A DNA stretch of 64,000 nucleotides from a virus. Taxonomy: Duplodnaviria; Heunggongvirae; Uroviricota; Caudoviricetes. Each line of letters opens with the position of its first letter. The stretch's first letter is position 1. The notes under the pieces were generated by a model. It searched no databases and was not told the origin of the DNA. It worked only from the letters and a program-made list of their open reading frames with translations. Location of the stretch: positions 10,951-74,950 of IMG/VR virus record IMGVR_UViG_3300037455_000402. The stretch is one strand, 5' to 3'. A program made the position numbers and the translations under genes. This document shows, one piece after another, positions 2,851 through 59,407 of this stretch.

Positions 2851-2952
2851 TCACAAGACGGGGATTTTGATACGGAATTGAACCGTTTGATTTTTTCGGA
2901 ATAGAAATTATTTACCTTAAACTATCAAGTATAGATTGCTGAACCGTCTTAT
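2851..2952 (-). ncRNA. Y-RNA-like structured RNA, short variant (family member a)
   Basis: 5' AAUAAGACGG..CAGCAAUCUAUA box, 3' CCGUCUUGU complementary 7-bp terminal stem; internal T-arm-like ACGGTTCAATTCCGT; flanked by tRNA-Phe and tRNA-Thr. Confidence 0.45.
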
Positions 2953-8657: not shown

Positions 8658-8817
8658 ATATTCACAAGATACACTTAAAAAAACCACTCCGCTGTGTTTG
8701 TCTACTTCACTACTCGCCCATAATGGTGGGCGAGGATAGGATTTGCACCTACGAAGCCTTTCGGCGGCGGATTTACTTTGGGTTAAATTAACAATAGATT
8801 GCTGTATGTATCTTAAT
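8658..8817 (-). ncRNA. Y-RNA-like RNA with permuted tRNA-like domain (family member b)
   Basis: 5' AUUAAGAUACAU-ACAGCAAUCUAUU box; 3' GUGUAUCUU pairs with 5' end; internal order T-arm (GTAGGTGCAAATCCTAT) - acceptor 3' strand CTCGCCC-A-CCA - loop - acceptor 5' strand GGGCGAG - D-arm-like; U8 run. Confidence 0.5.
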
Positions 8818-13652: not shown

Positions 13653-13748
13653 ATTTTAAATTCATAATTAATGTAGAGCAAGACAGATTAATTTACAAAA
13701 AATTCATAATGGCTTGTAATTTTTATAGATTGCTGTGTCTGTCTTTGT
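13653..13748 (-). ncRNA. minimal member (c) of the CAGCAAUCUAUA-box RNA family (terminal stem + hairpin, no tRNA-like domain)
   Basis: 5' AAAGACAGACACAGCAAUCUAUA, 3' CUGUCUUGC complementary; between suppressor tRNA and tmRNA. Confidence 0.35.
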
Positions 13749-13825: not shown

Positions 13826-13936
13826 TCAAAACACGATAGGTCTTTTGAGGACCGTCCTCGGTTTTAAGGCGGGAGTCGAACCCTACCCAGCAAAAATGGC
13901 TGCTTTAAATTGTATGGATTGCTGTAACTATCGTTA
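13826..13936 (-). ncRNA. CAGCAAUCCAUA-box RNA family member (d)
   Basis: 5' AAUAACGAUAG..CAGCAAUCCAUA, 3' CUAUCGUGU terminal stem; internal T-arm-like TAGGGTTCGACTCCCGC and hairpin GAGGACGGTCCTC. Confidence 0.35.
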
Positions 13937-14126: not shown

Positions 14127-14269
14127 CATTACAAGACACCTTTTCGATAAAATCGTCGTTCTGCTAACTGAACTATCCCCCTATATAATTGGCAGGGGGA
14201 GACGGAATTGCACACGTCGTTTACGGCTTGGATTGCATATCATAATATAGATTGCTGATGTGTCTTAAT
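14127..14269 (-). ncRNA. Y-RNA-like RNA with permuted tRNA-like domain (family member e)
   Basis: 5' AUUAAGACACAU-CAGCAAUCUAUA; 3' GGUGUCUUGU pairs with 5'; T-arm-like GACGTGTGCAATTCCGTC - TCCCCCT-G-CCA - loop - AGGGGGA-TA-GTTC AGTTAGCA GAAC (D-arm). Confidence 0.5.
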
Positions 14270-15052: not shown

Positions 15053-15192
15053 ATAAAACAAGATACGTTGTTTGATTTATCGCGCGTCTGCTAATTCCGC
15101 CACTCCCCGATGATGGTCGAGGAGGTAGGATTTGCACCTACAATGTACGAGCTCCCTAAGCCTATCAGTTATAGATTGCTGCACGTATCTTA
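15053..15192 (-). ncRNA. Y-RNA-like RNA with permuted tRNA-like domain (family member f)
   Basis: 5' AUUUAAGAUACGUG-CAGCAAUCUAUA; 3' ACGUAUCU pairs with 5'; T-arm GTAGGTGCAAATCCTAC - CTCCTCG-A-CCA - UCAU - CGGGGAG - D-arm-like. Confidence 0.5.
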
Positions 15193-32459: not shown

Positions 32460-33173
32460 TTAAAATACCCCAAGGGTACTTTCTTCAAAAGCAATCATTC
32501 TAAGGTCGTCATAAAGAATACGAGTAGTTGGAGTAAGTATATCCTTATGATAATGACCGCAGAAATGTTCCTTGTATATAACATCGTCCAAAATGCGAGT
32601 TAGTCTCTTGTCAGAAATGGTTGGCTTATAACCAAGAAAGTTACAAGTATCCACGCCGCCAGTATGACTAAATACAAAATCGACAGTATTATTATATTTC
32701 TGAAGGTTAATCTTTGCTACCTCTACGTCCTCTTCGGTGATTTGCTCCTGCTCCCACCAAGAAACGTGAGGTGTACGATAACGCTTACCATCAATAAATA
32801 TGTCGTGAGAGTCTGCACCATTTACTACAAGGCAGTTCTTACCACAAAGATTATAAACCTTGCCGCTCATAGCATAGTAAATTGAATCACTGACTTTCCA
32901 ACACATTTCGCCGCCAAAAGTTGTAGTAGGGAGCTGCTCAATGGCATCATAATTTTCGTGATTTCCAAGTACACAAAATGTAGTCCAAGGCTTATCATTT
33001 AAAAACTTCTGCCAGAATCTTTCAGTTGCAGAATCGCACCATACAAAACCTGCATCTCCCATAATAACGAGAATGTCGTCTTTGGTAAGACCATCGCACT
33101 TAAAATGGCGGCTATTCAATTTTGACATATCGAGACCACCGTGAGTGTCTCCAGTAACGAAAAGTCTTCCCAT
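32460..33173 (-). CDS. calcineurin-like metallophosphoesterase
   Basis: GDTHGG, GDAGF, GNHE, GHxH motif order. Confidence 0.6.
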   Translation of the reverse strand: MGRLFVTGDTHGGLDMSKLNSRHFKCDGLTKDDILVIMGDAGFVWCDSATERFWQKFLNDKPWTTFCVLGNHENYDAIEQLPTTTFGGEMCWKVSDSIYYAMSGKVYNLCGKNCLVVNGADSHDIFIDGKRYRTPHVSWWEQEQITEEDVEVAKINLQKYNNTVDFVFSHTGGVDTCNFLGYKPTISDKRLTRILDDVIYKEHFCGHYHKDILTPTTRILYDDLRMIAFEESTLGVF

Positions 33174-36837: not shown

Positions 36838-37407
36838 TTAATCCTCCTTCAGTGTCCAGCCATTCTTCACCAGAATTTGGTAAAATTCATTTTCTTCTTC
36901 TAAGTATTTAGAAAACTCTTTTTTAGTCAGAATTTTATTAGCGCCGCCTTTCCAGCAGAGGTCTGTTTTAAGAATCTCAAATATAACAGTATCACAAATT
37001 TTCCTATTCTGTGGCGCTCCATTACGACGGAGAGTTCCCACTTCTACGCCGCCGTATTCTTTAATGATACGACGATAAAGCTTCAAGGCTTCAATGTTGT
37101 TAGCATAACAACGCCATTCTGCACTTTCGACACCGAACTTTTCAAACATATCTTTGAACATCTGAATAGCATCTCGCATAAAGATACGACTCTTTTTTCT
37201 GAAAGCTATCAAACCAAAGTTCATTGCACGTTTTGACGGCTCATAAACCCAATAGGAAAAATAGCCTAAGACTTCTCCATTTTCATCGACTGAAACAAAC
37301 TGATACTGATTATCTGGCTTGTCCGCAATATCAGGTATGCCTGGCGTTGTATCATAGTAGTACATATAATCAGGGTCATACCAAGTCTCTGCCATTTTTA
37401 ATTTCAA
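36838..37407 (-). CDS. GNAT-family N-acetyltransferase-like protein
   Basis: central ...FGLIAFRKKSRIF...NNIEALKLYRRI..GG acetyl-CoA binding-like region. Confidence 0.4.
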   Translation of the reverse strand: MKLKMAETWYDPDYMYYYDTTPGIPDIADKPDNQYQFVSVDENGEVLGYFSYWVYEPSKRAMNFGLIAFRKKSRIFMRDAIQMFKDMFEKFGVESAEWRCYANNIEALKLYRRIIKEYGGVEVGTLRRNGAPQNRKICDTVIFEILKTDLCWKGGANKILTKKEFSKYLEEENEFYQILVKNGWTLKED

Positions 37408-37432
37408 CTGCTATTCAAAAAGTATTGCAGGT

Positions 37433-37729
37433 TTAATCATTGTTCTCCTCCTTATTATCTGCGTTTCTACCGATATGGTACTTGCCGCAGTAAAGACATT
37501 TGTAATAGCTGAAATGTACGCCTTTCTTTTCACCCATTTTCTCAGCACATTTCTTAGCTGTTTCTACGGTATTATACGCTACTTTTGGCTGACCAGAGTG
37601 CTGATTAATATGAGAGTTGATACTAAATAAACCCAATGAGTTATGGGTAATAAAGAAATTCTTAAACCATTGCGGCTTGCTTAACTCAAATCTCAAGGCT
37701 TCAAAAAAATATTTAATCTTAATTTTCAT
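37433..37729 (-). CDS. hypothetical protein, C-terminal CxxC
   Basis: start at MKIKIKYFF with AGGAGAAAGTAATG RBS. Confidence 0.45.
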   Translation of the reverse strand: MKIKIKYFFEALRFELSKPQWFKNFFITHNSLGLFSINSHINQHSGQPKVAYNTVETAKKCAEKMGEKKGVHFSYYKCLYCGKYHIGRNADNKEENND

Positions 37730-37740
37730 TACTTTCTCCT

Positions 37741-37937
37741 TAAATAAAATTGATAGCCGCAAGCACATTCATATCCTTTATAGCAACACCCTGCACGTGG
37801 CGGTGCAAATATCACCATCTTCATCCAATGCTTGGGCACTTTATATCTTCCGCTGTTGCCGCCGTGCTATTTAACGTGTTGCTAAAAATCTTTTGATAGA
37901 ACTGCAAGTTCTTCTTTTGTAAAAGAATAAACATCAT
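37741..37937 (-). CDS. small Cys-rich protein with two in-frame TAG codons
   Basis: AAAGGAGGAAGGAAAATG RBS; MLDDVYSFTKEELAVLSKDF-TAG-QHVK-TAG-HGGNSGRYKVPKHWMKMVIFAPPRAGCCYKGYECACGYQFYLRRK. Confidence 0.4.
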
Positions 37938-37968
37938 CAAGCATTTTCCTTCCTCCTTTTATCTTTAT

Positions 37969-38006
37969 CTAATTATATTATATCATAAATAATAAAAAAA
38001 GTCAAG
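37969..38006 (-). promoter_or_regulatory. consensus promoter TTGACT-N17-TATAAT
   Basis: TTGACTTTTTTTATTATTTATGATATAAT. Confidence 0.7.
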
Positions 38007-38111
38007 ACTTTACAGCCTTGACTTTTACCAGACGCAATCTATATACACAATTAACAGGAGGGAAAACCATGCTTTTTCATTTTTCTATCATAGAGAAAAT
38101 GCAGTTACGCG

Positions 38112-38283
38112 TCTGTTATTCATAATCGTCGTCGTCGTCATCGTCGTAATAATTATCTCTCTTACGCTTAGAACGACGGCGGTCAGATTCTTTCTTTCTC
38201 TTATCCTTTTCTGAGTCTTTAGAAAAACTTGTGTTATCTTTCTTATCCCAATCGTTTTTACGACTATTCTGCTTGTATGCCAT
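38112..38283 (-). CDS. small highly charged protein (57 aa; K/R-rich then poly-Asp)
   Basis: AATCGGAGGATTTATG RBS; MAYKQNSRKNDWDKKDNTSF...DDDDDDDYE. Confidence 0.4.
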
Positions 38284-38295
38284 AAATCCTCCGAT

Positions 38296-38679
38296 TAATA
38301 ACCGAAAGCGGAACGAATAACGTTGCTGAGGTCGCCGTCCTCAGTTATGTTCAGCCAAGGATTCTCAGCAACTGGCTTAACTCTCTGAAGCTTTGAGGTG
38401 TAAGAGCAATCCAAGATTGCCGCCTTATCAGCATAAGCTGAATTATACTTCTGAGCCGCAGTATTGTAAGCTGTTACCTTATTCTTAAGGGTTGCATAAG
38501 CTGTATCAACTTCCTTACGAAGAGCTGCAAGCTTATCCTTATCCTCGATTCTCTGCTTCTCAAGAAGCTACTTACCATTCTCTGCCTTAGCATCTGCTGC
38601 AACGCAATCAGCAAGGTCGTTTACATTATACCAAATCTTACCACATACAGGACAAGTATACTTTGCCATAATAAAATCA
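38296..38679 (-). CDS. zinc-ribbon/coiled-coil protein with one in-frame TAG (codon 34)
   Basis: AAGGAG RBS; MAKYTCPVCGKIWYNVNDLADCVAADAKAENGK-TAG-LLEKQRIEDKDKLAALRKEV... Confidence 0.5.
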
Positions 38680-38802
38680 CTCCTTATTTATATTGCAGAC
38701 AATTTGTCTGTTATAATCCATATTAATATACCTACATAATCGGGTAACATTGGGCATACAGAGTATGCCCTTGTTAACCTTTCACCTATGTTAAACATAG
38801 CG

Positions 38803-40281
38803 TCACTTCCAGCAGAACTGTGGACGTGTAAGTATCTGTGTCATAGCCTCAACAGAGTCCATTGTAATAAGAGTTGTAAGCTCCTTAAATGTTGCTGCTG
38901 AGCTACCAGAAACATATGCGATGCCAGGGTTGCCACACTTACTAATGAAACGATTACCACGAGAGCATACGTTCCACATAATAAGCTTAGGAGCAACAAG
39001 ACCAGCCTTAGCATAAGCCTTCTGCCACTTCTCAACGATAGTATCAACGTTGCCGCGTGAAGCGAAAGCGTCAATCTCACCGTCTGAGATTATAACAAGT
39101 GCCTCAGGTGCCTCGCCTGCCTTTATAGCAGTACGATAAATAGCATCGAAAGCGCCGTCGAGGTTAGTGTTGTAACCTACGTGCTTCATTACCTCGTTTA
39201 CACGAGAAGCAACGGTATCAGTTGGGTTAAGCTCATAAAGAGAAGGTCTGTCAGTGAATGTAAGGAAGAGGTTCTTGTAAGGACCTGAGTTACGCTCAGC
39301 AAAGTAAATACCAAGAGATACAGAAGTAGCAATTGGCTTATTACCCTCGCAGTACATAGAACCAGATACGTCTGACATTACAATGACATTGTGCTCACCC
39401 TCGACATAGTCAGGAAGAGCCTTCCACTGAGCCTCAAGAACCTTATCAACCTCAAGGTTGTAACGTGAATACCAACCTGAAGTCTGGTTAATGTAAGGCA
39501 TAATAAGGTCATATGGGTAAGATACACTTGCGTTAATCTTAGCCTCGCCCTTAGTAACAGCGTTAATGAACTTGTCAAAACGCTCATAGTCGTGACGACC
39601 GAAAGCAGAACGGTATCTTGTCATAGCGACAGATGGAACTGCCTGATAGTCGATAGCACCGAACTGGTTAGAAGACATCTTCTTCTCAACGACATCAAGG
39701 TACTTACGAAGAGCTGCGAGAGTCTTACGATATGTACGCTCGGTTATGCCGAAGTAAGTGTAGACCTTACGAGCAAGTCTACGAGTCTCCTTAGAGCTGG
39801 TGTTTGGAGAAGGAAGCCACTTAGCAAGAAGAGATATGCTCTCGTTCTTGGTCATGTCCTTAATATCCTTAGTAAACTGAGCCTTCATAAACTCAAGAGC
39901 CTCTGTCTCGACAGAAGTTCCCTCAAGGACGAACAAGTCGTCCCAACGACCTGCAGATACGATAGTATCAAGATTGCGAGCAACCTTTGCAGGGTCCTTA
40001 AGTGCAAGAGTCTTCAAAAGAGTTCTTGCAATTCTACGCTCACCGATACCACCCTCACGGATGTTACGAGCATAAAGTATCATATTGTCAGCAAGCTCCT
40101 TGTCAGAGTTGCGGGCATCAAGATACATACGGTTAAGCTCAGCCTCAGTAGCCTTACGCATACCACCAATTCTTGCAAAAAGGTTTAATACAGGGTTACC
40201 AGTAGTAGAGCAAACCTTAGCACCGTTCTCGGTGTAAGCTACATTTGTCTGATTTCTGAATGAGTTTGCGAAATTACTCAT
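38803..40281 (-). CDS. Ro60 ortholog (TROVE domain + C-terminal vWA; Rsr-like)
   Basis: 492 aa; N-terminal TROVE-like region (…NPVLNLFARIGGMR…); C-terminal vWA MIDAS VIVMSDVSGSM and ...PKLIMWNV... pattern comparable to Ro60 LLAVDVSASM...LIVCGMT. Confidence 0.6.
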   Translation of the reverse strand: MSNFANSFRNQTNVAYTENGAKVCSTTGNPVLNLFARIGGMRKATEAELNRMYLDARNSDKELADNMILYARNIREGGIGERRIARTLLKTLALKDPAKVARNLDTIVSAGRWDDLFVLEGTSVETEALEFMKAQFTKDIKDMTKNESISLLAKWLPSPNTSSKETRRLARKVYTYFGITERTYRKTLAALRKYLDVVEKKMSSNQFGAIDYQAVPSVAMTRYRSAFGRHDYERFDKFINAVTKGEAKINASVSYPYDLIMPYINQTSGWYSRYNLEVDKVLEAQWKALPDYVEGEHNVIVMSDVSGSMYCEGNKPIATSVSLGIYFAERNSGPYKNLFLTFTDRPSLYELNPTDTVASRVNEVMKHVGYNTNLDGAFDAIYRTAIKAGEAPEALVIISDGEIDAFASRGNVDTIVEKWQKAYAKAGLVAPKLIMWNVCSRGNRFISKCGNPGIAYVSGSSAATFKELTTLITMDSVEAMTQILTRPQFCWK

Positions 40282-40446
40282 ACTCTTTTCCTCCTTTAGA
40301 AAAACAAGATTCGATAAATGGTTTCGGGTTATTCATACCTGAAAAAAATTTTAGCTGTGTGAATCTTCAACTCGCCGCCTTAAGTGCTTTGTTTTCAATA
40401 CAAATCTATTCATAAGTTGCTGCAAGCGGCTATAATCAATAATCAC

Positions 40447-40532
40447 TGGTCGGGGTAGCGGGACTCGAACCCGCAAGCCACAAGGGCACCTGATTTTGAG
40501 TCAGGCGTGTTTACCAATTTCACCACACCCCG
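40447..40532 (-). tRNA. tRNA-Leu(CAA)
   Basis: type II; D-arm TGGTGAAATTGGTAAACAC; anticodon stem CCTGA/TCAGG loop CTCAAAA; C1-G72; CCA encoded. Confidence 0.75.
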
Positions 40533-40761
40533 ATAATGGGCGAACCCCACAAGTTGCCCACTACTCTTTGCAAAGAAATTAAATGGTCTACCGTGGTACG
40601 CTTATCTGGCTACTCGACGTTGCTGCGCTACAATCTCTCTTTGGCTCTGACATAGGCGCGATAGGCACTGTTCCAATTCACAAGACGCATAAATTTTAAG
40701 ACAATTTTTCACCAAATCAAAAATTTTCTTTTAAATTTATAATTGCTGGGTGCGTCTTTAA

Positions 40762-40836
40762 TGGTGTGGGATAGGAGAATCGAACTCCCATCTCCTGCTT
40801 GGAAGGCAGGCATCATGACCATTAGACCAATCCCAC
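40762..40836 (-). tRNA. tRNA-Gly(UCC)
   Basis: anticodon stem CCTGC/GCAGG loop CTTCCAA; acceptor GTGGGAT/ATCCCAC; CCA encoded. Confidence 0.75.
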
Positions 40837-41243
40837 ATTAAAGGTGGTTTGATAAAGCTGTCCACCTACTACAGCTTGTCACATTATACCGTGGTCTTAG
40901 CTAATACGGAGAGGAGCTACCTCTGGTGACACCGTCGCTTTCTTCCCACATTCCGCAAAGGAACTTGGCGATTCTTGAAGTGTTAAGGCTCACGTCCTTA
41001 ATTTCATTTTTCACTCTCGCCATACACTCCCTACTTATCTTCGGGCTATTGTATTAGGGCTGACCCCTAAATTTTAAGGAAGTAGATGTTATAACACTAC
41101 ACGACAAGAAATTTTAGCCAGTTTATTCTGGTGTCTTTCCTTTAGGCTCAGACTGCCATTGTGGAGCTGAAAATATCCAGCAATATACTTTTATTAAACC
41201 CAATTGTTTTGTTCAATAAGATTGCTGACTCTTGTCGTTTATT

Positions 41244-41281
41244 ATATTTATATTATATCATAACTTTTTTAAAAAGTCAAG
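41244..41281 (-). promoter_or_regulatory. consensus promoter TTGACT-N17-TATAAT (drives tRNA-Gly/Leu segment)
   Basis: TTGACTTTTTAAAAAAGTTATGATATAAT. Confidence 0.65.
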
Positions 41282-41714: not shown

Positions 41715-42626
41715 TTAATGAGCTGCCATATCAGCTTCATGAAGAAGCTCATAAACTGCTCTCATTTCGCCGCCGTAAAGACGCTCAAACTCATCAATGA
41801 AATTGTCTCTGAAATAATACTCCATATGCCACTGAATAAGGACAATAAGTGCTGCATAAAAGTCGTACTGCTTAGAAGCAAACTGACCAACACAACAAGC
41901 TACCATATAGGCTCCCACTTCGTGGTGATTATAGAAATGTGAATGGTCATCTTCCTTGCCGTTATACTTCATACGGGACTTAACGACAGGCTTACCAATA
42001 TCGTGGAATAATGCGGCAGTACGTGCAAGATGCTTAAGGTTCTTATCCAAACCCTTCTCTGCCGCGTGGTCAGAAGCGTACTTACTTGCCTCTAACATAT
42101 GATGAAATATATCAAGCTGATGATGAGGATTATCGTGGTCTACACCACAAGCATCAAAAAGATACTCACCGAGCGTCTTCTTGTTCTTAGGATTTGGAAT
42201 CATACGGATAGAGTCCCAGCCCTCATCAAGACGAGGAAGAGACATTTCTCTATACATACGCCAGATAACCTCTTCAGGAACGTGACGCATACGATTAGCG
42301 TTCTGCTCTAAGATAACGTCGATTTCCGTAGCTGCTACTACAGCAATCTTCTTAACGTCCTTAGGAAGTTCCTTTAAAAAATTCTTTCTACGCTTACGAG
42401 ATAAGTTCGTTGCGTCATAAACACAAGACTGTCCATTTGCAAGGTAGTTCTTTATACGCTTATGAAGCTCGTTGAATACCTCGCCGTTATGAGACTGGTC
42501 GTCCTCAGAACCGAATAACTCTGCTCGGATAGCATCTGAGGAGACAATAGGACAGCCAAGGTCACGAGCAATGAATGACTTACCAGAGCCAGCTACGCCG
42601 ACCATCATATAAAATACAGCACTCAT
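41715..42626 (-). CDS. P-loop NTPase/kinase fused to HD-domain phosphohydrolase (candidate polynucleotide kinase-phosphatase or dNTP hydrolase)
   Basis: N-terminal MMVGVAGSGKSF Walker A; C-terminal HD motifs (LFHDIGK, HHEVGAY, H..D). Confidence 0.55.
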   Translation of the reverse strand: MSAVFYMMVGVAGSGKSFIARDLGCPIVSSDAIRAELFGSEDDQSHNGEVFNELHKRIKNYLANGQSCVYDATNLSRKRRKNFLKELPKDVKKIAVVAATEIDVILEQNANRMRHVPEEVIWRMYREMSLPRLDEGWDSIRMIPNPKNKKTLGEYLFDACGVDHDNPHHQLDIFHHMLEASKYASDHAAEKGLDKNLKHLARTAALFHDIGKPVVKSRMKYNGKEDDHSHFYNHHEVGAYMVACCVGQFASKQYDFYAALIVLIQWHMEYYFRDNFIDEFERLYGGEMRAVYELLHEADMAAH

Positions 42627-42696: not shown

Positions 42697-43848
42697 TTAT
42701 TTAAAAGATTTTATTGTTGACTCATTATCAGAAGTGTAAAGGTTAATCTTTCCTTCCGCCGCCGTAAGTATCTCTGTTCCTGCAAACTCATTAGTATGAG
42801 TTACCACAAGAGAAGGCTTAGCTTTAATACCCTTCATTTCAAAATACTTAGAGTCACGAATAGCTCTTGCTACTGCGGCGTTAGCTTCTCTTTGGTCAAA
42901 TTTACCATAACGAAGAGTTCCCTGATTAGGGTTAGGCACATTCGTAGCATCAAACATATCGGCATTGATTGCCGCCTTATCGCACTCAAGGTTAGAAGTC
43001 TGTCCTATCTGTCCCTTGCCGTGACGAGTAAGGTATGTACGAGTTACATAGAGGGTTTCAATATCTACTTCCCCCTTGTCAAAGTTCTGGGCGATTATCT
43101 GAGAAGGCACTTTCGCGCCGACATAGGCAGGAGTATTATGCTCGAAGTCATAATTGTGGTCATCCGCAAGAAGAAGTCCCTGACCATTCTCAAAGACGAG
43201 AAGAGGATAAGAATGGAGAAGCGCCTTCTCTTCTGTATCATTCTTAATCAAGGTAATATGGTCATAAAACCACTGGAAGTCCTCGTCAATATTTGGTTCG
43301 AGATATTCTCCGTGAAGAAAGTTAGTAACATCTTCAGGAAGTGTACCGTCCTTATCTCTAAGGACATCCTCATAATACTTGATTATAGTATCAAGATGAT
43401 AATGAGGTGTACCTGCCATTTCAGTACAAACCCTATGACGATTTAATGACTCCCAAACGCCGCATCCCGTAGATGAATGAGACTTATCGCCGCGGCGCTC
43501 TTCTACGTTTACATTTGCAAACATATCAACGGGAGATACCATAACGCCGCCTATTTTTGCATAGACCTTGGGCGTAATTCCCATAGCTTCAAGTTCTTCC
43601 CACTCACGTCTGAACATAGCGGGATTTACCATAAACTCTTCGGAAAAGTAAGTAGCGGCACCTTTGAGAGTACCGCTACCAAAGTGGCGGAAAACTCTCC
43701 TTACGCCGTTTTCTACTACCGTATGCGCCCTCTGACAAGAGTTTGAGGGCAGGATATTGAGACAGGTTGGTGTAGATACCGCATTGGCAACGAGTCCTTT
43801 CGACTCGTCACCATAGTTAAGTCCAGTTACGATTTTAATTTCCGCCAT
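42697..43848 (-). CDS. adenylosuccinate synthetase homolog (PurA/PurZ family)
   Basis: GLNYGDESKG (PurA GDEGKGK P-loop), AHTVV (GHT), STGCG (TTGRGIGP), YVTRTYLTRHGKG; 383 aa. Confidence 0.55.
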   Translation of the reverse strand: MAEIKIVTGLNYGDESKGLVANAVSTPTCLNILPSNSCQRAHTVVENGVRRVFRHFGSGTLKGAATYFSEEFMVNPAMFRREWEELEAMGITPKVYAKIGGVMVSPVDMFANVNVEERRGDKSHSSTGCGVWESLNRHRVCTEMAGTPHYHLDTIIKYYEDVLRDKDGTLPEDVTNFLHGEYLEPNIDEDFQWFYDHITLIKNDTEEKALLHSYPLLVFENGQGLLLADDHNYDFEHNTPAYVGAKVPSQIIAQNFDKGEVDIETLYVTRTYLTRHGKGQIGQTSNLECDKAAINADMFDATNVPNPNQGTLRYGKFDQREANAAVARAIRDSKYFEMKGIKAKPSLVVTHTNEFAGTEILTAAEGKINLYTSDNESTIKSFK

Positions 43849-46044: not shown

Positions 46045-46950
46045 TTACTTAATGAGACCTCTTGCAAGCTTCATTGAAAGTGAGCCACAAATCTTACCGA
46101 AGTTCTCAATCTGAGCTACAGTCTCGGGCTCCTCCTTTACACAGTCATTGTAAATTGCTCTTGGAAGATTCTTAGCGATTGTACCAAGGTCCTTCTCGTC
46201 CCAGTTCTCTGGAACAATGCCGTCCTCAACGAACTTCTGAATTGCCTTCTCAACTCTTCTTGGAGTTACGATAGTCTCTGCAAGAGCCTCTGCAGCCTGT
46301 CTTGCTGCAATCTTTGCAGGGTCAATGTCCTTCTGAGGCTTTGACTGATGAACCTCAGAGAACTCCTTTGCAACAATCTTTACATATGCAGGAGTACCGC
46401 TGAACTTATTGTCAAGTCTGTCCTGAGACTTAATAACTACACCCTCACCTGTAGGCTCACCGCCCATCTCTGTCTTACCAACAAAAGAGTAAACGTGCTC
46501 CCAAGAGATGAAAGGACCGTCGTAAAATACAGGAACCATCTTAAGACCGCAGAACTCTGCCATCTGCTTGGTCTGCTCCCATGGAATGTACTGCTCAATC
46601 TCAGTATCCCATACGTCGAAAACATAGAACTGCTTCATCTTCTCCTGTGGGTACTTAATAGTGTGCTTAACGAGCCACTCACCGAAGAAAATGTATCTTG
46701 TACCAAGTACACAAGAAATCATAGTAGGGTCAAGTGACTGAACATACTCGTAGAAACCCTGAAGGTTGCTCTCAGGAGTAAGCTCATTTCTTCTTGAAAA
46801 AGCAATAAGCTTACCGTCCTCGCCAACTGCGATTGATGCGTTTGCACCGTCTATCTTCTCTGTAATTGTAATATGCTCTCCCACCTTGAAAGCCTCAGCG
46901 AACTTGTCCTTGAGTCTCTCAATATCAACATACTTTTTCATTAACATCAT
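46045..46950 (-). CDS. RNA ligase, T4 Rnl2-like (nick-sealing family)
   Basis: motif I EKIDGANASI (T4 Rnl2 EKIHGTNFSL), FGEW, YVFDVWDTE, EGVVIK, KIVAKEF align with Rnl2 motifs. Confidence 0.65.
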   Translation of the reverse strand: MMLMKKYVDIERLKDKFAEAFKVGEHITITEKIDGANASIAVGEDGKLIAFSRRNELTPESNLQGFYEYVQSLDPTMISCVLGTRYIFFGEWLVKHTIKYPQEKMKQFYVFDVWDTEIEQYIPWEQTKQMAEFCGLKMVPVFYDGPFISWEHVYSFVGKTEMGGEPTGEGVVIKSQDRLDNKFSGTPAYVKIVAKEFSEVHQSKPQKDIDPAKIAARQAAEALAETIVTPRRVEKAIQKFVEDGIVPENWDEKDLGTIAKNLPRAIYNDCVKEEPETVAQIENFGKICGSLSMKLARGLIK

Positions 46951-52897: not shown

Positions 52898-53257
52898 TTA
52901 AATTCTAAAAGAGTAAACCTCATCTGACTTTGCTGCAATTAGTTGTGTATCTATTGGTGAAATAAATTCATCGACTACCGCCATATCCCAGCGGTCTCCA
53001 CGAGGCATATGGTCTGAGACAATTAAAACTTTAATTATATTACGTTTCTCTTTATCAATCAATTTAACTGTTGTAGAAGAAATAGTACAATCATAGCTTT
53101 TATTCATAGACAAAACTCTGTGGTCTTTTACCATAAAGGCAAGTATCCTATCCCTTGCCCATGTAAAATGTTTCTCATTAGCAACAGCAATACAAGCGGT
53201 AAAATTGTCTTCTGTTAAAAATCTATGAAGTAAAAAATTAATTTCTATATCGTTCAT
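52898..53257 (-). CDS. hypothetical protein (119 aa)
   Basis: ORF track; ATG overlaps TAA of upstream GIY-YIG gene. Confidence 0.5.
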   Translation of the reverse strand: MNDIEINFLLHRFLTEDNFTACIAVANEKHFTWARDRILAFMVKDHRVLSMNKSYDCTISSTTVKLIDKEKRNIIKVLIVSDHMPRGDRWDMAVVDEFISPIDTQLIAAKSDEVYSFRI

Positions 53258-54270
53258 TATGAATTACCTGCCGTACTATTGTATCCCCATGTATTTGCAT
53301 GGTAGAATGAAATGTACTCCTTTTCCTTTCCATTTAATTCGTCAGTATCACATTCAGCAAGAACTTCAAAAGTGAAATTCTCTGCACCCTCTTCCCACAT
53401 TGCATTATAAAGCTTATTAGAAGTACCTGGCTCTGCTTTTACACCACGCTTTAAGTGAGTACGCCAACGTTCCTTAAAAGCCTATTTTGTTTGTCCGATA
53501 TAAACTTTGCCGTTTTCGAGATTGGTGATTTTATAGATACCAGTATTGCCACGTCCAGTAACAACTCGTCCTACCATTTCATTGAATGGACGCTCATAAT
53601 AGTTCTTATAAATTAATTTGTAAAGAACAGAAGGGTCGTGAAGTTCGTCGGCAATTTTGCGAAGCTTCTTAACATCTTCAATATCATTTTCAGAAAGAAC
53701 AATACGATAGAAATTTTTATCTTCTTTAATCTTTTCTGCTCTTTTATATTCCTCAATGATTTCTTGCTATTTAGCTTCAGCAGCCTTGACTTCTTTTTCA
53801 AGTTGAGCCTTTTTAGCTTTCATTTCAACAGAGAAATTCTAAAATTCTTCTGATATGTTAATCTTCTACTGGTCATAATAATCCATTACAGATTGAAGTT
53901 GTAGAGCCCCTTCTTTTGATTTGTTCTGTACCTCAGTAGCAAGTTCTGCCGCCAAAGCTTGGAGCTAATCGTCTCTTCGCTTACGAGCTGCCGCAAGGTC
54001 CATATCTAAATTCTTTATAGATTCTTCAATGGAACGACGCTTTCTCGCTGCTTCTTCTATAGCATTACCGAGTTCAAGTTTAATAGCTAATTCTTCTTCA
54101 CTAATTCTTTTCTTACGCTTAGCTTCGAGAGCCTTAAGAGCTTCCTATTTGGCTGTTTCAAAATCTTTAACTGCCTTTTCAGAAACAGATATCTGCTGGT
54201 GAACGGCTAAACAATAGCCGCCCCAGCCCGCAAAAAGACAACAGATTATAGCAATAAAAATATATCCCAC
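53257..54270 (-). CDS. GIY-YIG nuclease-domain protein (N-terminal TM helix + coiled coil), six in-frame TAG codons
   Basis: single frame from GTG (GAGGTGG RBS) to TAA; C-terminal GIYKITNLENGKVYIGQTK-TAG-AFKERWRTHL...KLYNAMWEEG...NFTFEVL GIY-YIG signature lies downstream of the TAGs. Confidence 0.6.
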
Positions 54271-54281
54271 TATAATCCACC

Positions 54282-54860
54282 TCAGTTTATAAGAAGTTCC
54301 TTTGCCATTGGAAGTGTTTCAATCCAAGCGCAGAACTCTCTCCATTCAGGAAGCCTATGGTTTTTACGCTGTTTATAGATATTTCTAAGACAACGATAGT
54401 TAGTTGTCATTCGAGCAGTAATTCTAAAGCCGCATGGATTGCTGTAGAGAACTCTTAAATAGTTCTCAGGCGTAGGATTTTCAAGATACTCTGCTACAAG
54501 TTCTTTCATTATTACAATCATACGAGGGTCTACATATTCGATATATGCGTCATCAAGTTCAAACTTGGTAATACGATGCATTGTAGACTATGATGATACA
54601 AATTCGAGAAAACGATAACGTTCTGCTTCAACCCAAGCCTTATTGGTAAAAGTTAAGTCAAAGTTGACACGAATACCAGTTAAGAACTATCCGTGTGCCT
54701 AATTATCATTATCAACCGCCTTGATTAAATTCTCTATACGCTTTAAATCTTTGTCGCTTAATATCCTATTATAATCCTACAGTTCAGTTCTCATAGGATA
54801 ACCAGATGCAATTATAGAATTGGTAAGGTCATATACTTCTGCATTATTTACTATACTCAT
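54282..54860 (-). CDS. hypothetical protein with four in-frame TAG codons
   Basis: ATG 54860 overlaps TGA of upstream gene; frame MSIVNNAEVYDLTNSIIASGYPMRTEL-TAG-DYNRILSDKDLKRIENLIKAVDNDN-TAG-AHG-TAG-FLTGIRVNF...FVSS-TAG-STMHRITKFELDD... runs uninterrupted to TGA at 54282. Confidence 0.5.
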
Positions 54861-55180
54861 TTTTCCAAGTGTCCCTCCCTTTTATAATAACCATACTTTT
54901 TGTTTAAAGTAATAATATAACACTTTTGAGTTGAACCCATGCCGCCTTTGCGTCCAGAGTCAGAATAGATATGGTATCCAGCCAACTCAATTTTATCTAA
55001 AAATTCATCTATGCCGTCAAACCAATCTTCTTCCCATAATGTTATACTATCAATTAACCATAGTCTATTTATTTGACTTATAATTTTTTCTTTATATTCT
55101 GCAATGCGTTTAAGCTCCATATCTTTTCTAAGGGCTGGAGCTTTCGCACGTTGCTCTGCGGCAGGCATAATTATACCCAT
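54857..55180 (-). CDS. hypothetical protein (107 aa)
   Basis: ORF track. Confidence 0.5.
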   Translation of the reverse strand: MGIIMPAAEQRAKAPALRKDMELKRIAEYKEKIISQINRLWLIDSITLWEEDWFDGIDEFLDKIELAGYHIYSDSGRKGGMGSTQKCYIITLNKKYGYYKREGHLEK

Positions 55181-55190
55181 TTTACCCTCC

Positions 55191-55433
55191 TTAGGAGTCA
55201 GCTTGCAACCCCTTATAAAAATCTTTTAATTCTTCAAACTCATCGTCGGTTAAACCGAAAACTTCAAAGTAAGAATAGTAATCACAGACGTCAATAGTAA
55301 GCCCGTCTTCGTCATAAATGGTTTCCATTGGGTCTCCTACAAGATTACGGCTATTGAATAGCCCGCAATCATAAGAATTAAAATTTTCCTTAATAATCTC
55401 TTTAGCCTTAGCTAATCTTTCACTTTCGCCCAT
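55191..55433 (-). CDS. hypothetical protein (80 aa)
   Basis: ORF track. Confidence 0.5.
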   Translation of the reverse strand: MGESERLAKAKEIIKENFNSYDCGLFNSRNLVGDPMETIYDEDGLTIDVCDYYSYFEVFGLTDDEFEELKDFYKGLQADS

Positions 55434-55714
55434 TATTCTTCTCCTTTCATTGAAGTAAATACTTCATCCATATTAGTTGCGATTGCATATGTTGATGACT
55501 CACTCCTTGCCATAGGAAGATAAATCATTGCAACGACTGATGCCGGCCACTTCTCAGCTAATGAAAAATCATTAAATGAAATAGCGTCCATATAAAAGTC
55601 CTGTTCAAGTTTATTCGGATAATTTTCAAGAAATTTAACAAATTCCTCTTTAGTACAGGGCTCCCTTTTAGGCTTAATAGTATACTTCTCACCACAATCC
55701 CAATCTTGCATCAT
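55433..55714 (-). CDS. hypothetical protein (93 aa)
   Basis: ORF track. Confidence 0.5.
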   Translation of the reverse strand: MMQDWDCGEKYTIKPKREPCTKEEFVKFLENYPNKLEQDFYMDAISFNDFSLAEKWPASVVAMIYLPMARSESSTYAIATNMDEVFTSMKGEE

Positions 55715-56289
55715 TCTTCTCCTTCTTCCTTAATCTCAGAACGGGTTTCTTTGCCGTCTTCCATAGCATCCCACTCTTTTAATCTGTCAAGTGTGTCAAT
55801 AAGTTCATCTGTATTAAGAGGATTATAACTCCATTTCGCCGCGTCAGCAGAGAGCATAATACCATTATATAATCCGTCAAAAGGATTTTCACTATCTGTT
55901 ACAAGTAAAGTATATGTCTTTGCATAATCAGACTGAGCCTCTACCTTCTTAATTACATAGAGAACCTCTCTACCATCAGGATATGTATGGAACATAGATA
56001 CGCCCCAGAAATGTTTAAAGCCTATCTCTCTCCATTCCTTCTTGGTAAATTTATCATTTAAATGTCTTGAAGTTGCTATCTTTTCTCCGTTTAATTGAGA
56101 AATAACTTCCTTCATTTCTTCTAATTTGCCGCTGCCTATATTTCCCATTATAATAACAGAGTCTTCAGGCTTGACAACTTTGTTCCAAGAACGAACAATC
56201 CAGTTATTCATTGCGGCAAAAGAGGGAAAGCCAAGCTTATCCCTCTACTCATTATCAAATAGCCTTAAATCTGCTATGATATATGTTGC
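55711..56289 (-). CDS. hypothetical protein; probable TTG start with one in-frame TAG upstream of the first ATG
   Basis: GAGGT RBS + TTG at ~56289; LATYIIADLRLFDNE-TAG-RDKLGFPSFAAMNNWIVRSWNK...; ATG at 56211 has no RBS. Confidence 0.35.
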
Positions 56290-56306
56290 CAATTACCTCA
56301 CCTCAA

Positions 56307-56600
56307 TTAATCCTTTGACTTAGTAGTAGTAACTGAGTTCTTGAAAAGCATACCGCAAAGAATATCAAGTCCAGCAAACTGCCAGAAAGTTAAATGGAGT
56401 GCGGTAAATCCCCATACGGTGCAAAGGATATAATTCCAAAGAAGCATACCAATCCACCAACCGAGACAAGCCAAGCCGAAACAGATACCAAGAACAAGAA
56501 GAATTATCAGGAATATACCAAATGCTCCTATAGACTCGTCCTTTGCCTTACTAAGTTCCTTTTCTAAACTACCTAATGCGCTCTGAATTAACATATTCAA
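56307..56600 (-). CDS. membrane protein with 3 TM segments (holin-like)
   Basis: GIFLIILLVLGICFGLACLGWWIGMLLWNYILCTVWGFTALHL; consensus promoter 56632-56669. Confidence 0.45.
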   Translation of the reverse strand: MNMLIQSALGSLEKELSKAKDESIGAFGIFLIILLVLGICFGLACLGWWIGMLLWNYILCTVWGFTALHLTFWQFAGLDILCGMLFKNSVTTTKSKD

Positions 56601-56631
56601 AGTCCTCCTTTTATTTATTTTCTATAATTAT

Positions 56632-56669
56632 TATATCATAATTGTAATCAAATGTCAAGTTTTTAATAA
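56632..56669 (-). promoter_or_regulatory. consensus promoter TTGACA-N17-TATAAT
   Basis: TTGACATTTGATTACAATTATGATATAAT. Confidence 0.7.
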
Positions 56670-56803
56670 TAAAAAAGAGTAGTCAATGACTACTCCTTTC
56701 GTTTGCGTGTTCCCATTTCGATATTTTCTGTTTTTGCCTTTTTACTTTTCTCGCTTACGCAATTGAGTTGCCAAGTCAATCACATATCTTTTCTAATGGG
56801 GTA

Positions 56804-57667
56804 TTAGATAGTACGGAAATAGTTTCTTTGACCATCACCGGACCATTGATTGCAAGTCCAGCCTGCAAATGCTTGTGGGTTATTAAAGTAATAATCCACC
56901 GCGTCAGACATTGCCGAATAATGAACTGAGCCGCCGCAGTAGTATTCTGCATATTTATTGAATCCCCAAGGTGCGCAAGTCTGGTCCAGTACGCCCTCGA
57001 CTGTGCCAGGCCAACGTGAGTCATTCACCATATTCATTACAGATGCTACTATCTTAGCTCTCTCATATGTATCTGCCATGCCGCCATACTCACTTGCGAC
57101 AATCTTGCAAAGCAATGTATAATCGTACTCGCTAACTGAAGGAGTAACATTGCTTATTGGTTCTACATATTCATTAATAACTTTTAAATCGGGTTTACAT
57201 TCGCTACAAATTCTACACTCAATATTCTCTGTATTCTCAATCTCAATAACTTCGCCCTGCTTTGCCCAGTGACAAGTAGAGCGGTGTATATAGTGTGTGT
57301 TTGGTTTAAACACAACAAATTCTCTTTCAGGTTCTGCCGTCTCTGGAGCCGCAACAGTAGTCTCGGCATCTGCTACTGTAGTCGAAACCTCTTCTGTTAC
57401 CACTGTTGTAGTAGTAGAAGAAAGTGTAGTTGATGTGCTTGTGGTTGTAGAAGTTGTGGATGTGCTTGTGGATGTTGAAGTAGTACCTGTTGTTACTGTG
57501 GTAGAAGTTTCTAATGTAGTAACTACTGCCGCCTTAACAGGAAAATCTACTCCGTGTGCTGTCCCACCGTCCGTATGTACAGTATGCGGTGTGGCAAAAC
57601 AAATTACGACAGCAGATGCGAATACTGCTGCCGCAATCTTAATTGATGTTTTAAGCTTCTTATTCAT
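56804..57667 (-). CDS. secreted cell-wall hydrolase, SleB/hydrolase_2-like C-terminal domain, Ser/Thr-rich linker
   Basis: signal peptide MNKKLKTSIKIAAAVFASAVVICFA; linker TTSTSTSTSTTSTTT; C-terminal ...LLCKIVASEYGGMADTYERAKIVASVMNMVNDSRWPGTVEGVLDQ...APWGF. Confidence 0.55.
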   Translation of the reverse strand: MNKKLKTSIKIAAAVFASAVVICFATPHTVHTDGGTAHGVDFPVKAAVVTTLETSTTVTTGTTSTSTSTSTTSTTTSTSTTLSSTTTTVVTEEVSTTVADAETTVAAPETAEPEREFVVFKPNTHYIHRSTCHWAKQGEVIEIENTENIECRICSECKPDLKVINEYVEPISNVTPSVSEYDYTLLCKIVASEYGGMADTYERAKIVASVMNMVNDSRWPGTVEGVLDQTCAPWGFNKYAEYYCGGSVHYSAMSDAVDYYFNNPQAFAGWTCNQWSGDGQRNYFRTI

Positions 57668-57764
57668 TAAAATTCCTCCTTTTCGTCCTTATGGACTATG
57701 AGGGGAACACGCATTTGTGTAGCGAAAACGCTACAATTATATGTAGAAATTACTAAGGAAAAGT

Positions 57765-58274
57765 CTAAAATTTATCATCTTCATTAAGATAGATATAATG
57801 AATAATAATTAAATCGTTCTTAATGATAGCCATAAATCCAGACACTCCCAAATAATTCTCATCAAATAAATGAACAATACAAGTTGTATTGTAAGATAAA
57901 GAATAATGATAACGTATAAGACCTTCAATTTGAAATTTCCAGTCTAAAGTCAATTTGCCTTTGGTTTTGTCAAAATATTCGCTTAATAGAAGCACAGCGT
58001 CTTCAAAAAGAATACCATAATTACTTAATTCAAAAATCTTGCCGCGACTTAATATGGGAACATCAGAGCTTGTAATTGCATTTTTGCCCCTTAAATTCTC
58101 TCTATGCCGAGGACTTATTGAACTAATGTAATCAAAACATCTATCAAGGACTTTCTCCATATCTGATTTAGATAAAGAGAAATAGTCATTTATCATTTTA
58201 TTAAATACTTTGACAAGTTTTTCAGGCATTGCTACTTTCTTATTATCATCTTCATAAATAGTAACGAGGCCCAT
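57765..58274 (-). CDS. hypothetical protein (169 aa)
   Basis: ORF track; AGGGGTGATAAGATG RBS. Confidence 0.5.
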   Translation of the reverse strand: MGLVTIYEDDNKKVAMPEKLVKVFNKMINDYFSLSKSDMEKVLDRCFDYISSISPRHRENLRGKNAITSSDVPILSRGKIFELSNYGILFEDAVLLLSEYFDKTKGKLTLDWKFQIEGLIRYHYSLSYNTTCIVHLFDENYLGVSGFMAIIKNDLIIIHYIYLNEDDKF

Positions 58275-58285
58275 CTTATCACCCC

Positions 58286-59383
58286 TTAGAAGGTAATTAC
58301 TTTCTTACTTGACTTACTGAAAACATTACCAGCCTTGGTATTATTGCTATTTGATTTGCCGCGATGAGTCTTAATAGTTGGACACCAGTATAAAGAATCC
58401 TTTGAACGGGTGGCGGCAACATAACAAATTCGTCTCTCTTCCTGACTAAATGTCTTTGCGCCAACGACAACTACATAAGGAAATTCAAGTCCCTTAGCAG
58501 AATGAATTGTCATTATTTTAACCTTATTTTCTTCGAGCAAATGCCCCATCTGTTCAAGGTCAAGGTCTCCACGTTTAACAATTACATTCGGAACTCCGAT
58601 TTTATTTAAATACCTTTCAGCTTCTTCAATTTCAGAATTGGCTCTACAAAGTACGGCCCAACCTGTCCAATCTTTTGTCCAAGTCATCTCTTCTGCCGCA
58701 TCAGCAAAAGAACAATTCTTATCTAAGAATCCCTGCTTTGTAAGTGTTGGTATTGCACAAGGTGAAATCTTAGGCATTGAATTTAAATAGTCATCGGCAT
58801 AACGAATAATGTTTGGTGGGTTACGATAGTTTTCTACAAGAAAATACTTTTTAAATGTAGGGTCTTCTGCAACTTCTCTGATAAATTTATCAGAAGCGCC
58901 GCGGAAGGAGTAGATAAACTGTCTTTCATCACCAACATAGAAACGATTTTCCGCTGGTATGCGAAGTATAAAATTGTATTGTAAAGGGTCTGTATCTTGG
59001 AACTCATCTACAAATAAGTAAGCAACCTTTGGATAAATTGAAGGCGGAACTGTTACAGCCTTTGATATAATTTTATCAAACTGCTCTTCCGCAATATCTC
59101 CATAAGTAGGAATGTTTGCAAGATTACAAATTTTATTTGCATAAGAGTGAATTGTTCCGATGAACATTCCTTCACATTTTTCACCAAGTCTCTTTCTCAT
59201 TTCCTCCGCCGCCTGATTGGTGAAAGTAAAAGCGACAATAGAAGAGGGCTCAACGCCCTCATCTAATAGTCTATTAACTCTTGCAATTAAGGTAGCAGTT
59301 TTACCACCAGCCGCACACGCAAGACAGAGGATATTTTTTTCTTTTGAATTTATAATGTTCTACTGTCGAATGTTGTATTCCAT
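58286..59383 (-). CDS. UvrD/Rep-family helicase-like protein (compact, ~365 aa) with in-frame TAG at codon 8
   Basis: GGAGGACTGCGTATG RBS; MEYNIRQ-TAG-NIINSKEKNILCLACAAGGKTATL (Walker A) ... VDEFQDTDPLQ (motif II) ... TIHSAKGLEF (V) ... VAATRSK (VI). Confidence 0.6.
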
Positions 59384-59407
59384 ACGCAGTCCTCCTTTTC
59401 TTTCGAA

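Follow-up and report, generated by a model that had tools for sequence, protein, structure and literature searches.

The DNA stretch considered here (the window) comprises 64,000 nt of a caudoviricete virus, positions 10,951 to 74,950 of IMG/VR record IMGVR_UViG_3300037455_000402. It is phage-like, with nearly all genes on the minus strand, and has 43 tRNAs, a transfer-messenger RNA (tmRNA), and a ROOL RNA. This large gut phage carries a gene, at 38803..40281 on the minus strand, for a protein with the shape of the Ro60 autoantigen (a ring plus a von Willebrand factor A, or vWA, domain) which belongs to another sequence family. In its tRNA spacers, and around the gene itself, are multiple copies of a structured RNA, referred to below as Yrl (Y-like RNA).

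The open reading frame (ORF) encodes 492 amino acids, ends in TGA, has no in-frame TAG, and is preceded by a strong Shine-Dalgarno sequence (AAAGGAGG, 8 nt ahead of the ATG). Its product has an N-terminal DUF2828 helical solenoid (approximately residues 1-290; Pfam PF11443, 1.8e-37, 129.6 bits against a gathering cut-off of 29) and a DUF7788 vWA domain (approximately residues 298-467; PF25043, 2.2e-23, 83.1 bits against a cut-off of 27.1). The PHROGs family phrog_850 (“RNA-binding protein”) matches residues 1-486 at 3.6e-123; NCBIfam and PADLOC searches with the protein gave no match. The vWA identity of the C-terminal half is also seen in profile matches to VWA2 (5a8j) and integrin I-domains. 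[quoted passage not shown] MIDAS residues are the typical protein-ligand sites of vWA domains. Also invariant in the diverse alignment are many arginine and lysine residues of the N-terminal domain (R42, R75, R82, R112, K154). An earlier interpretation of this gene, made from the DNA and its translations (the sequence-only reading), had called both the ORF and a C-terminal vWA domain with a DxSGS MIDAS motif, and both stand.

The same reading proposed a phage ortholog of Ro60/Rsr, with an N-terminal TROVE-like region. The predicted fold agrees with this. An AlphaFold2 model made with 35 homologs as input (pLDDT 91.6, pTM 0.89) is composed of helices only in its N-terminal half, and has the Ro60 architecture of a helical-repeat solenoid with a vWA cap, in the same order; in a Foldseek search of the PDB, the top 13 matches are all Ro60/TROVE structures, aligned over the full length at 11-16% identity. 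The sequence models give a different result. TROVE (PF05731) is not matched even at E ≤ 1, the outcome which the sequence-only reading had itself named as counting against it, and DUF2828 is found instead; nor is vWA_Ro60 (PF25045) matched, Pfam giving DUF7788 there. Bxz1 gp220, used as a positive control, matches these two models at 9.4e-50 and 4.3e-54, respectively. The homologs encoded by LeBron, by the Felixounavirus Alf5, and by the Listeria phage WIL-1 each have the DUF2828 plus DUF7788 pair.

More sensitive comparisons did not close this gap. A link to TROVE was sought by profile against single sequence and by profile against profile, and the vWA half alone was aligned: with hhalign, the DUF2828 alignment A5 and the TROVE alignment A6 share 167 vWA columns only (E 4.7e-5, probability 68%). 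Similarly, the PDB sequences, searched with the protein sequence directly and with profiles A1 and A5, yielded vWA domains only, the profiles finding no Ro60 chain at E ≤ 10, so that Ro60 is reached by fold alone. In a viral structure library, the close neighbors are of the DUF2828 type, from other phages and from giant viruses (Pithovirus, TM 0.88), and TROVE-type phage proteins rank far lower; as these are much more distant in fold, TROVE and DUF2828 appear as separate viral lineages existing side by side. The 492-residue protein thus has the shape of Ro60 and belongs to a separate family: “Ro60-like” is justified, and “ortholog” and “Rsr-like” overstate the case. Going by the predicted structure, DUF2828/DUF7788 would be a sister family of TROVE/Ro60, recognizable through its fold and not through a sequence model.

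The RNA family came to light in the spacer between a tRNA-Glu and a tRNA-Leu gene (16517-16655, minus strand), which has a sub-threshold match to Rfam YrlA (34.5 bits, E 3e-4). In the Rfam alignment of this RNA (16521..16653), the arms are permuted as in YrlA (T-arm, acceptor-like hairpin, D-arm), and in the minimum free energy (MFE) structure a 9-bp stem between the two ends closes this tRNA-like module. The 5′ strand of the closing stem, together with CAGCAAUCUAU, recurs right 3′ of several tRNAs, with matching 3′ strands just 5′ of the next tRNA. In the resulting signature, CAGCWA comes 1-4 nt after the 5′ strand of a closing stem, then a variable module, and last the 3′ strand with a G after it. 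A strict descriptor (AAGA plus at least three more pairs, CAGCWA 3-9 nt away, and a complementary strand with UCUU as its end) finds eight copies in the window, four long ones with tRNA-like modules and four short, all intergenic (in tRNA spacers) and on the minus strand, whose variable stem positions covary. Six of the eight begin 3-4 nt after a tRNA 3′ end, and five stop 4-7 nt before the next tRNA. The strict descriptor, with its AAGA...UCUU stem, missed the copies in the Listeria phage, LeBron, and Felixounavirus; it was generalized because weak unfiltered model matches in Listeria phage WIL-1 revealed tandem elements there. The general descriptor (a stem of at least 7 bp, 1-4 nt, CAGCWA, and the 3′ strand plus G) finds 11 copies in the window, again intergenic, in tRNA spacers, and on the gene strand, four of them inside the gene's own transcription unit. 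The candidate Y-like RNAs of the sequence-only reading are therefore present.

Several lines of evidence support the reality of this family. In 87 homolog-anchored loci (672 kb), the gene strand has 114 matches to the strict descriptor, the opposite strand 4, and shuffled sequence 1. Features that it does not require are nearly constant in these copies: a G follows UCUU in 99%, and stem position 5 is a pyrimidine in 100%. The 5′ motif is accompanied by a closing 3′ strand in 114 of 142 cases (80%) in the Ro-like loci, compared with 15 of 210 (7%) in unrelated contigs, the latter being 120 viral contigs chosen for having the 5′ motif, one of which itself encodes a homolog. For the general descriptor, the corresponding counts are 256 (gene strand), 37 (opposite strand), and 27 (shuffled sequence), with at least one element in 65 of 77 unique loci. 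A scan of the collection with AAGAN{6,8}CAGCAATCTAT was too loose, giving single chance matches in unrelated contigs, and was kept as a negative control only.

A covariance model (R1) was built from the four long window copies, with the structure set by hand because a MAFFT alignment of these copies misaligned the inner hairpins. Its 51 matches at E ≤ 0.01 are every one on the gene strand. In the R1 alignment (46 distinct sequences), 91.4% of cells are paired, compared with 35-45% in slid controls, and compensatory changes occur in 21 of 26 pairs, with support for all five helices.

The long copies (those beginning at 16653, 15191, 14266, and 8814) have the YrlA architecture: a closing stem plus permuted T-arm, acceptor-like hairpin, and D-arm, next to a Ro-type gene. 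None reaches the YrlA (RF02553) gathering threshold of 69 bits, the best window copy scoring 34.5, LeBron 39.8, and L207, another of the loci, 34.8; however, the accepted Y RNA of phage Bxz1 scores only 32.5 bits, which indicates that this threshold is strict for phage members and calibrates the sub-threshold Yrl scores. Another YrlA match in the window, at 8495-8636, was rejected as a tRNA-dimer artifact (the T-arm of a tRNA-Met plus the D-arm of a tRNA-Ser), a false positive of YrlA searches described in Chen et al. 2014. The short copies lack the tRNA-like module, and are only loosely like YrlB or phiLo Yrl2. No Rfam family besides YrlA overlaps Yrl elements at E ≤ 1, and literature searches found no description of elements of the CAGCWA type. 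Yrl is thus a candidate class of structured RNA, absent from Rfam and previously undescribed, and it is this RNA family that is new. In two relatives (L205, 11070-11280; L206, 12358-12597), the ortholog of the 15191 copy has its acceptor-like hairpin enlarged by an insert of approximately 80-110 nt with a T-loop of its own, which gives the appearance of a tRNA-like unit inside a Y-like RNA.

Four copies accompany the gene in its transcription unit (all features on the minus strand). The unit opens with a sigma-70-type promoter (41252..41280; TTGACT, 17 nt, TG-TATAAT), which has 11 of 12 consensus positions and an extended -10 region and is kept in relatives L001-L003. The first RNA past it is a 139-nt Yrl (41100..41238) found by the general descriptor, with a 10-bp stem (ACGACAAGAG/UUCUUGUCGU) and then U-CAGCAAUC. 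After approximately 260 nt comes a tRNA-Gly(UCC) (40762..40836; ARAGORN and Rfam), and 4 nt past this a short Yrl (40681..40758; both descriptors) with the stem AAGACGCA/UGCGUCUU, which is formed in the MFE structure (z = -3.0) and is retained in the L001 ortholog through a compensatory change. Approximately 148 nt farther on is a tRNA-Leu(CAA) (40447..40532; tRNA/Rfam scan), which throughout the close clade lies 134-172 nt upstream of the Ro-like gene. Two leader elements follow. The first, at 40373..40430, is a hairpin with the Yrl signature (GCCGCUU-G-CAGCAACU...AGGCGGC-G; general descriptor); in seven relatives there are compensatory changes at two of its pairs (GCCGC/GCGGC, GUCGC/GCGAC, GUCAC/GUGAC, GCCAC/GUGGC). 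The second (40305..40367; AAGAUUC-ACA-CAGCUA...GAAUCUU-G; both descriptors) is adjacent to the ribosome-binding site and invariant in sequence in relatives; its position suggests that it might serve in feedback control. The ORF and two small ORFs come next, and a strong intrinsic terminator (37997..38026), recognized in the sequence by a 13-bp stem and a U run, closes the unit.

Close relatives retain two noncoding stretches of this unit (minus strand; 40837-41099 and 40533-40680), which match no model; the second holds another CAGCAA and a T-loop-like GGGGUUCGCCC just ahead of tRNA-Leu. The 1 kb or so that lies downstream of the gene (37769-38802) looks poor in genes, but was rejected as a candidate noncoding RNA region, being coding if in-frame TAG is read through. 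The promoter has counterparts elsewhere: a near-identical strong promoter (AAAATCTTGACTTTT...TATGATATAAT) is present at no fewer than nine places on the minus strand (5650-5710, 6320-6380, 7360-7420, 7990-8045, 10385-10440, 11210-11265, 14490-14545, 18775-18830, and 41252-41280), cutting the tRNA array into short units.

The copies outside the gene's unit are likewise on the minus strand. Those called by the strict descriptor, model R1, and MFE folding include long ones between tRNA-Glu and tRNA-Leu (16521..16653, the founding YrlA match, R1 140 bits), ending 6 nt before a tRNA-Val (15059..15191), placed 4 nt after a suppressor tRNA(CUA) and 4 nt before a tRNA-Ser (14132..14266), and between a tRNA-Ala-like gene and tRNA-Met (8665..8814), as well as one with a T-arm only, between tRNA-Phe and tRNA-Thr (2852..2952). 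A short copy found by the strict descriptor and MFE (13679..13745) lies 4 nt after the other suppressor tRNA(CUA), and the general descriptor adds an element at 13832..13934 (ACGAUAG-UUA-CAGCAAUC...CUAUCGU-G). The tmRNA (13302-13652, minus strand; 108 bits; tag peptide ANDFAFAA) also belongs to the tRNA array, with a short Yrl 26 nt upstream of it.

The association of Yrl with DUF2828 genes extends to distant phages. Listeria phage WIL-1 has three tandem elements between its last tRNA and its DUF2828 gene, directly upstream of the latter; their stems differ yet covary, each is followed by NNN-CAGCAAU, and the 3′ strands are followed by GU. Mycobacteriophage LeBron has three in tandem right after gp53, in a tRNA-free locus (the middle one being the Rfam YrlA match of 39.8 bits), and several metagenomic loci with no tRNA also have elements flanking the gene. 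Alf5 has four elements in the tRNA spacers past its DUF2828 gene, and Bas63 has four in tRNA spacers (MZ501086, at approximately 82072-82139, 82239-82297, 82694-82762, and 82781-82907), one with a full tRNA-like module. By the strict descriptor, 15 of 74 unique loci have an element whose end is no more than 150 nt from the start codon, and 8 have one that starts no more than 300 nt past the stop. In the TROVE-type phage Bxz1, which has tRNAs, a YrlA-type RNA lies upstream of gp220, and the general descriptor found no CAGCWA element near that gene. The DUF2828 homolog of the Listeria phage is adjoined by RtcB, an RNA ligase, and an HD protein.

Parts of these regions have been annotated as coding. 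In Bas63 (L216, 16749-17023), two tiny opposite-strand “hypothetical protein” ORFs, bas63_0137 and bas63_0138, overlap Yrl elements, and in WIL-1 (L209, 1-6000) many ORFs of 22-40 aa are annotated over tRNAs, a ROOL-like RNA, and the three Yrl elements; these are probably spurious calls. The WIL-1 ROOL-like RNA (L209, 4471-5022; 87 bits, just below the gathering score) is approximately 1 kb upstream of the DUF2828 gene. The window has a full-length ROOL RNA (264 bits, 3408-4003, minus strand) inside the tRNA array, so ROOL, tRNA arrays, and the DUF2828 family co-occur in two unrelated phages.

The protein family is widespread. Homologs, all less than 40% identical to the window protein, are found in 708 deposited phage records, with hosts including Escherichia, Mycobacterium, Salmonella, Vibrio, Listeria, Staphylococcus, and Campylobacter among others, and carry labels such as “DUF2828,” “RNA-binding protein,” “vWFA protein,” and “Ro-like RNA binding protein”; a large protein collection contains more than 7,500 matching proteins. 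Homologs of the protein were found only in viral contigs. The element itself, a phage, has no close deposited relative, and a megablast search of the deposited phages with 25 kb of the window as query gave no match. TROVE proteins have been reported in some jumbo phages, together with RNA-repair genes (PMC7824862). For the DUF2828 family there is a published phenotype: gp130 of Bas63, described as structurally resembling Ro60 and encoded upstream of a tRNA array, counters the ppl defense, and expressed alone from a plasmid or put into T7 it restores plaquing on ppl hosts (PhageMaP preprint, bioRxiv 10.1101/2024.10.10.617714). The gp130 sequence of the Bas63 record (MZ501086) and the window protein are homologous over the full length (33% identity, E 5e-80). 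The protein is therefore less novel than the sequence-only reading had assumed: it is a new member of a known, barely studied phage family which is common, already labeled Ro-like, and has a published phenotype in one member.

The rest of the genomic context proposed earlier (tmRNA, two RNA ligases, kinase and phosphatase candidates, and a Thg1-like enzyme) is all present. A protein encoded at 41715..42626 (minus strand) fuses a Pnkp-type kinase to an HD phosphohydrolase of the HDIG/CCA-enzyme type (Pfam AAA_33 and HD; NCBIfam bacter_Pnkp kinase part at 8.9e-16, and HDIG), making it a candidate RNA end-healing enzyme; its gene is syntenic with the Ro-like gene in relatives L001-L004. There is an Rnl2-family RNA ligase at 46045..46950 (minus strand; Pfam RNA_ligase 8e-27, NCBIfam RNA_lig_RNL2), and library scans identify an Rnl1-like RNA ligase (21388-22512), a metallophosphoesterase (32460-33173), and the Thg1-like enzyme (17996-18820). 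Adjoining the kinase-HD gene, and syntenic in relatives, is a gene for a divergent adenylosuccinate-synthetase-like protein (42697-43848, minus strand; Pfam 6e-13, far under the equivalog cut-offs). Its product could be a PurZ-like nucleotide-modification enzyme; Bxz1 has an annotated “2-aminooxy adenylosuccinate synthetase.”

TAG seems to be recoded in this phage. With TAA and TGA as the only stops, long frames with many in-frame TAGs are open in 53257-63998 and 36838-38687 (minus strand), including 62492-59448 (1014 codons, 20 TAGs), 63998-62502 (498 codons, 13 TAGs), and 54318-53257 (353 codons, 6 TAGs). The two tRNAs with CUA anticodons (13749-13825 and 14270-14344) each have a Yrl 4 nt downstream. 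Two further sub-threshold Rfam matches on the minus strand are a tRNA-Sec-like RNA (13942-14029; 42.8 bits against 47), not called by ARAGORN, and an HDV-like ribozyme of the F. prausnitzii type (5014-5082; E 0.04, 30 bits where the gathering score is 44).

The frequent position of Yrl elements next to DUF2828 genes suggests that the two might work together. The reading we favor, which seems to us reasonably probable, is a ribonucleoprotein (RNP) of the Ro/Y type, in which the DUF2828 protein binds phage-encoded Yrl RNAs through the closing stem and CAGCAAU, and the particle helps to shield the phage RNA economy from attack by the host. It is based on analogy with Rsr/Y RNA/PNPase (PMC4201824; PNPase is polynucleotide phosphorylase) and with the Ro60 of phage phiLo (PMC12135203), together with the Bas63 phenotype. 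The RNAs would be transcribed from strong early promoters within the tRNA arrays and, because many are flanked within a few nt by tRNAs, probably set free by the enzymes that process tRNAs, RNase P and the 3′ processing nucleases. The closing stem, CAGCAAU, and the G after the 3′ strand form the probable protein-binding site, in analogy to the stem through which Y RNAs bind Ro60. The T-arm, hairpin, and D-arm of the tRNA-like module, as in bacterial YrlA, could tether or decoy tRNA-recognizing enzymes, and the particle, if it resembles Rsr/Y RNA/PNPase and phiLo Ro60, would hold back host activities that decay or cleave RNA, or turn them elsewhere. It may act together with the ligases, kinase-HD enzyme, Thg1, and tmRNA to keep the phage tRNA pool working, a pool which would include the two suppressor tRNAs needed for the TAG-recoded genes; in doing so it would have a counter-defense function.

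Several observations weigh against this reading. The N-terminal domain has no sequence-level relation to TROVE in Pfam, profile, or profile-profile searches, so the RNA-binding surfaces of Ro60 cannot be mapped onto the protein. On the RNA side, the GNCGAAN0-1G motif found near the Ro-binding stem of YrlA (Chen et al. 2014) is not conserved in Yrl, only the 8814 copy containing GCCGAAAG. The leader element next to the ribosome-binding site is not stable alone (the MFE structure lacks the stem, z +0.9), which makes its structure uncertain. The general descriptor has a real background, approximately 12-15% of its matches, and in 12 of the 77 unique loci it finds no element up to 3 kb away; the alignment that shows covariation was itself fitted to the R1 model. 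Finally, Bas63 gp130 alone protects T7, which lacks such RNAs, from ppl, so that this activity, at least, may not need phage Yrl.

This last point leads to the main rival, that the protein is an RNA-independent anti-defense factor acting through its vWA/MIDAS face, for instance by blocking or sequestering a defense ATPase or nuclease such as ppl, with the Ro60 shape an inherited scaffold. The gp130 experiments fit it, T7 having neither a tRNA array nor Yrl, as do the MIDAS residues, the most strictly invariant part of the DUF2828 family, and the failure to find similarity to the RNA-binding TROVE domain in the sequence. However, a conserved MIDAS, whose role is not known, is present in Ro60 too (PMC12135203), and host RNA could stand in for Yrl in the T7 experiment. 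The many invariant N-terminal arginines and lysines also speak against an RNA-independent role, as does a specific RNA family tightly linked to the gene on the same strand, and often less than 150 nt from it, in phages of Actinobacteria, Firmicutes, and Proteobacteria and in gut metagenomes. We consider this rival unlikely, while giving it real weight.

As a further possibility, the Yrl elements might be cis-acting features of tRNA arrays (processing punctuation, spacer stabilizers, or degenerate tRNA-derived repeats) with no physical tie to the protein, co-occurring with its gene through a shared placement in tRNA regions. The abutment of most window copies on tRNAs would be expected in this case, the long forms clearly derive from tRNA parts, and many DUF2828 loci have tRNAs nearby. 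One argument against this is that Yrl elements flank the gene in LeBron and several metagenomic loci although these are tRNA-free; the three Listeria phage elements also sit directly upstream of the gene, and the CAGCWA signature is conserved over phages whose only evident common feature is the DUF2828 gene. Bxz1, conversely, has tRNAs and a Y RNA, yet no CAGCWA signature near gp220. Taken together, these make the explanation rather improbable.

Most doubtful of all is a true but fast-evolving Ro60/Rsr ortholog that takes misfolded RNA 3′ ends into its central hole and feeds them via Y RNA to PNPase (RYPER): the full-length fold match, the DVSGSM MIDAS shared with TROVE proteins, the YrlA-like long Yrl forms, and RNA-repair neighbors recalling the Salmonella rsr-yrlBA-rtcBA operon (PMC4201824, PMC7790460) would accord with it, but the TROVE and vWA_Ro60 models go unmatched when phage Ro proteins such as Bxz1 gp220 match at 1e-50, TROVE-type phage proteins are far more distant fold neighbors than giant-virus DUF2828 proteins, and the partner RNAs have CAGCWA in place of GNCGAA.

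Returning to the Ro/Y-type RNP, it can be extended, tentatively and with some doubt on our part, to the family as a whole. DUF2828/DUF7788 proteins and CAGCWA Yrl might constitute a widespread, unrecognized viral RNP system parallel to Ro60/Y RNA, in phages with hosts in at least four bacterial phyla, whose RNAs would be cut from tRNA-array transcripts by the tRNA-processing machinery, with the tRNA-like modules serving as decoys or tethers against host tRNA-directed or RNA-decay defenses. The protein fold occurs in giant viruses too. If true, this would explain the Bas63 gp130 anti-defense phenotype and the frequent presence of the gene in large tRNA arrays. The roles of Ro60/Y RNA particles in bacteria and phages are still poorly understood, and a common phage “RNA-binding protein” family now appears as a second Ro60-shaped lineage with its own multi-copy candidate partner RNAs, recognizable by a simple signature. 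Annotation is corrected as well, both for the tiny ORFs over Yrl in Bas63 and WIL-1 and for the two families under one “Ro-like” label.

The distinction between these families is clearest in the mycobacteriophages, where the shared label covers both. In cluster L (LeBron gp53 and its relatives) it denotes the same DUF2828/DUF7788 family as in the window, with the same RNA signature in three tandem elements right downstream; in cluster C it denotes Bxz1 gp220, of the true TROVE family, with an upstream YrlA-type RNA lacking the CAGCWA signature. “Phage Ro” in the classical sense (Pedulla 2003; Chen 2014) is reportedly Bxz1 gp220.

The Ro60/Rsr proteins of the cellular systems (D. radiodurans RYPER, Salmonella rsr-yrlBA-rtcBA) are approximately 530 aa long, compared with 492 aa here. 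They carry TROVE and vWA_Ro60, where the phage protein matches neither model and overlaps in profile-profile comparison only in the vWA half; and their partner RNAs have the GNCGAA motif, where the 11 copies here have CAGCWA and lie inside tRNA arrays. Thermus phage phiLo Ro60 (PMC12135203; PDB 9L5Y, 9KOP) was deposited as TROVE domain-containing, and its Yrl1 and Yrl2 are recognized through a CGAA motif, unlike the DUF2828-type protein and CAGCWA-type RNAs of the window. It binds its Yrl RNAs and attenuates PNPase (PMC12135203); these are phiLo's own data, the window system being known from sequence and a model.

Another known counterpart is Bas63 (Escherichia phage JohannRWettstein), whose gp130 belongs to the same family over its full length and whose gene abuts a tRNA array, as here. 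Bas63 is an 87-kb Felixounavirus with a different host and lineage from the window phage, and its RNAs are downstream of the gene; the ppl phenotype is its own, the window phage being known here from sequence alone. The authors of the preprint on gp130 raised the possibility that some annotated tRNAs are Y RNAs, whereas the elements found here sit between tRNAs. Since Bas63 is a genetically tractable phage of E. coli, its gp130 has a knockout phenotype against ppl, and its Yrl elements are now located, the RNP hypothesis is directly testable there. The Yrl class, with its conservation over distant phages, is a variant of the Ro/Y theme.

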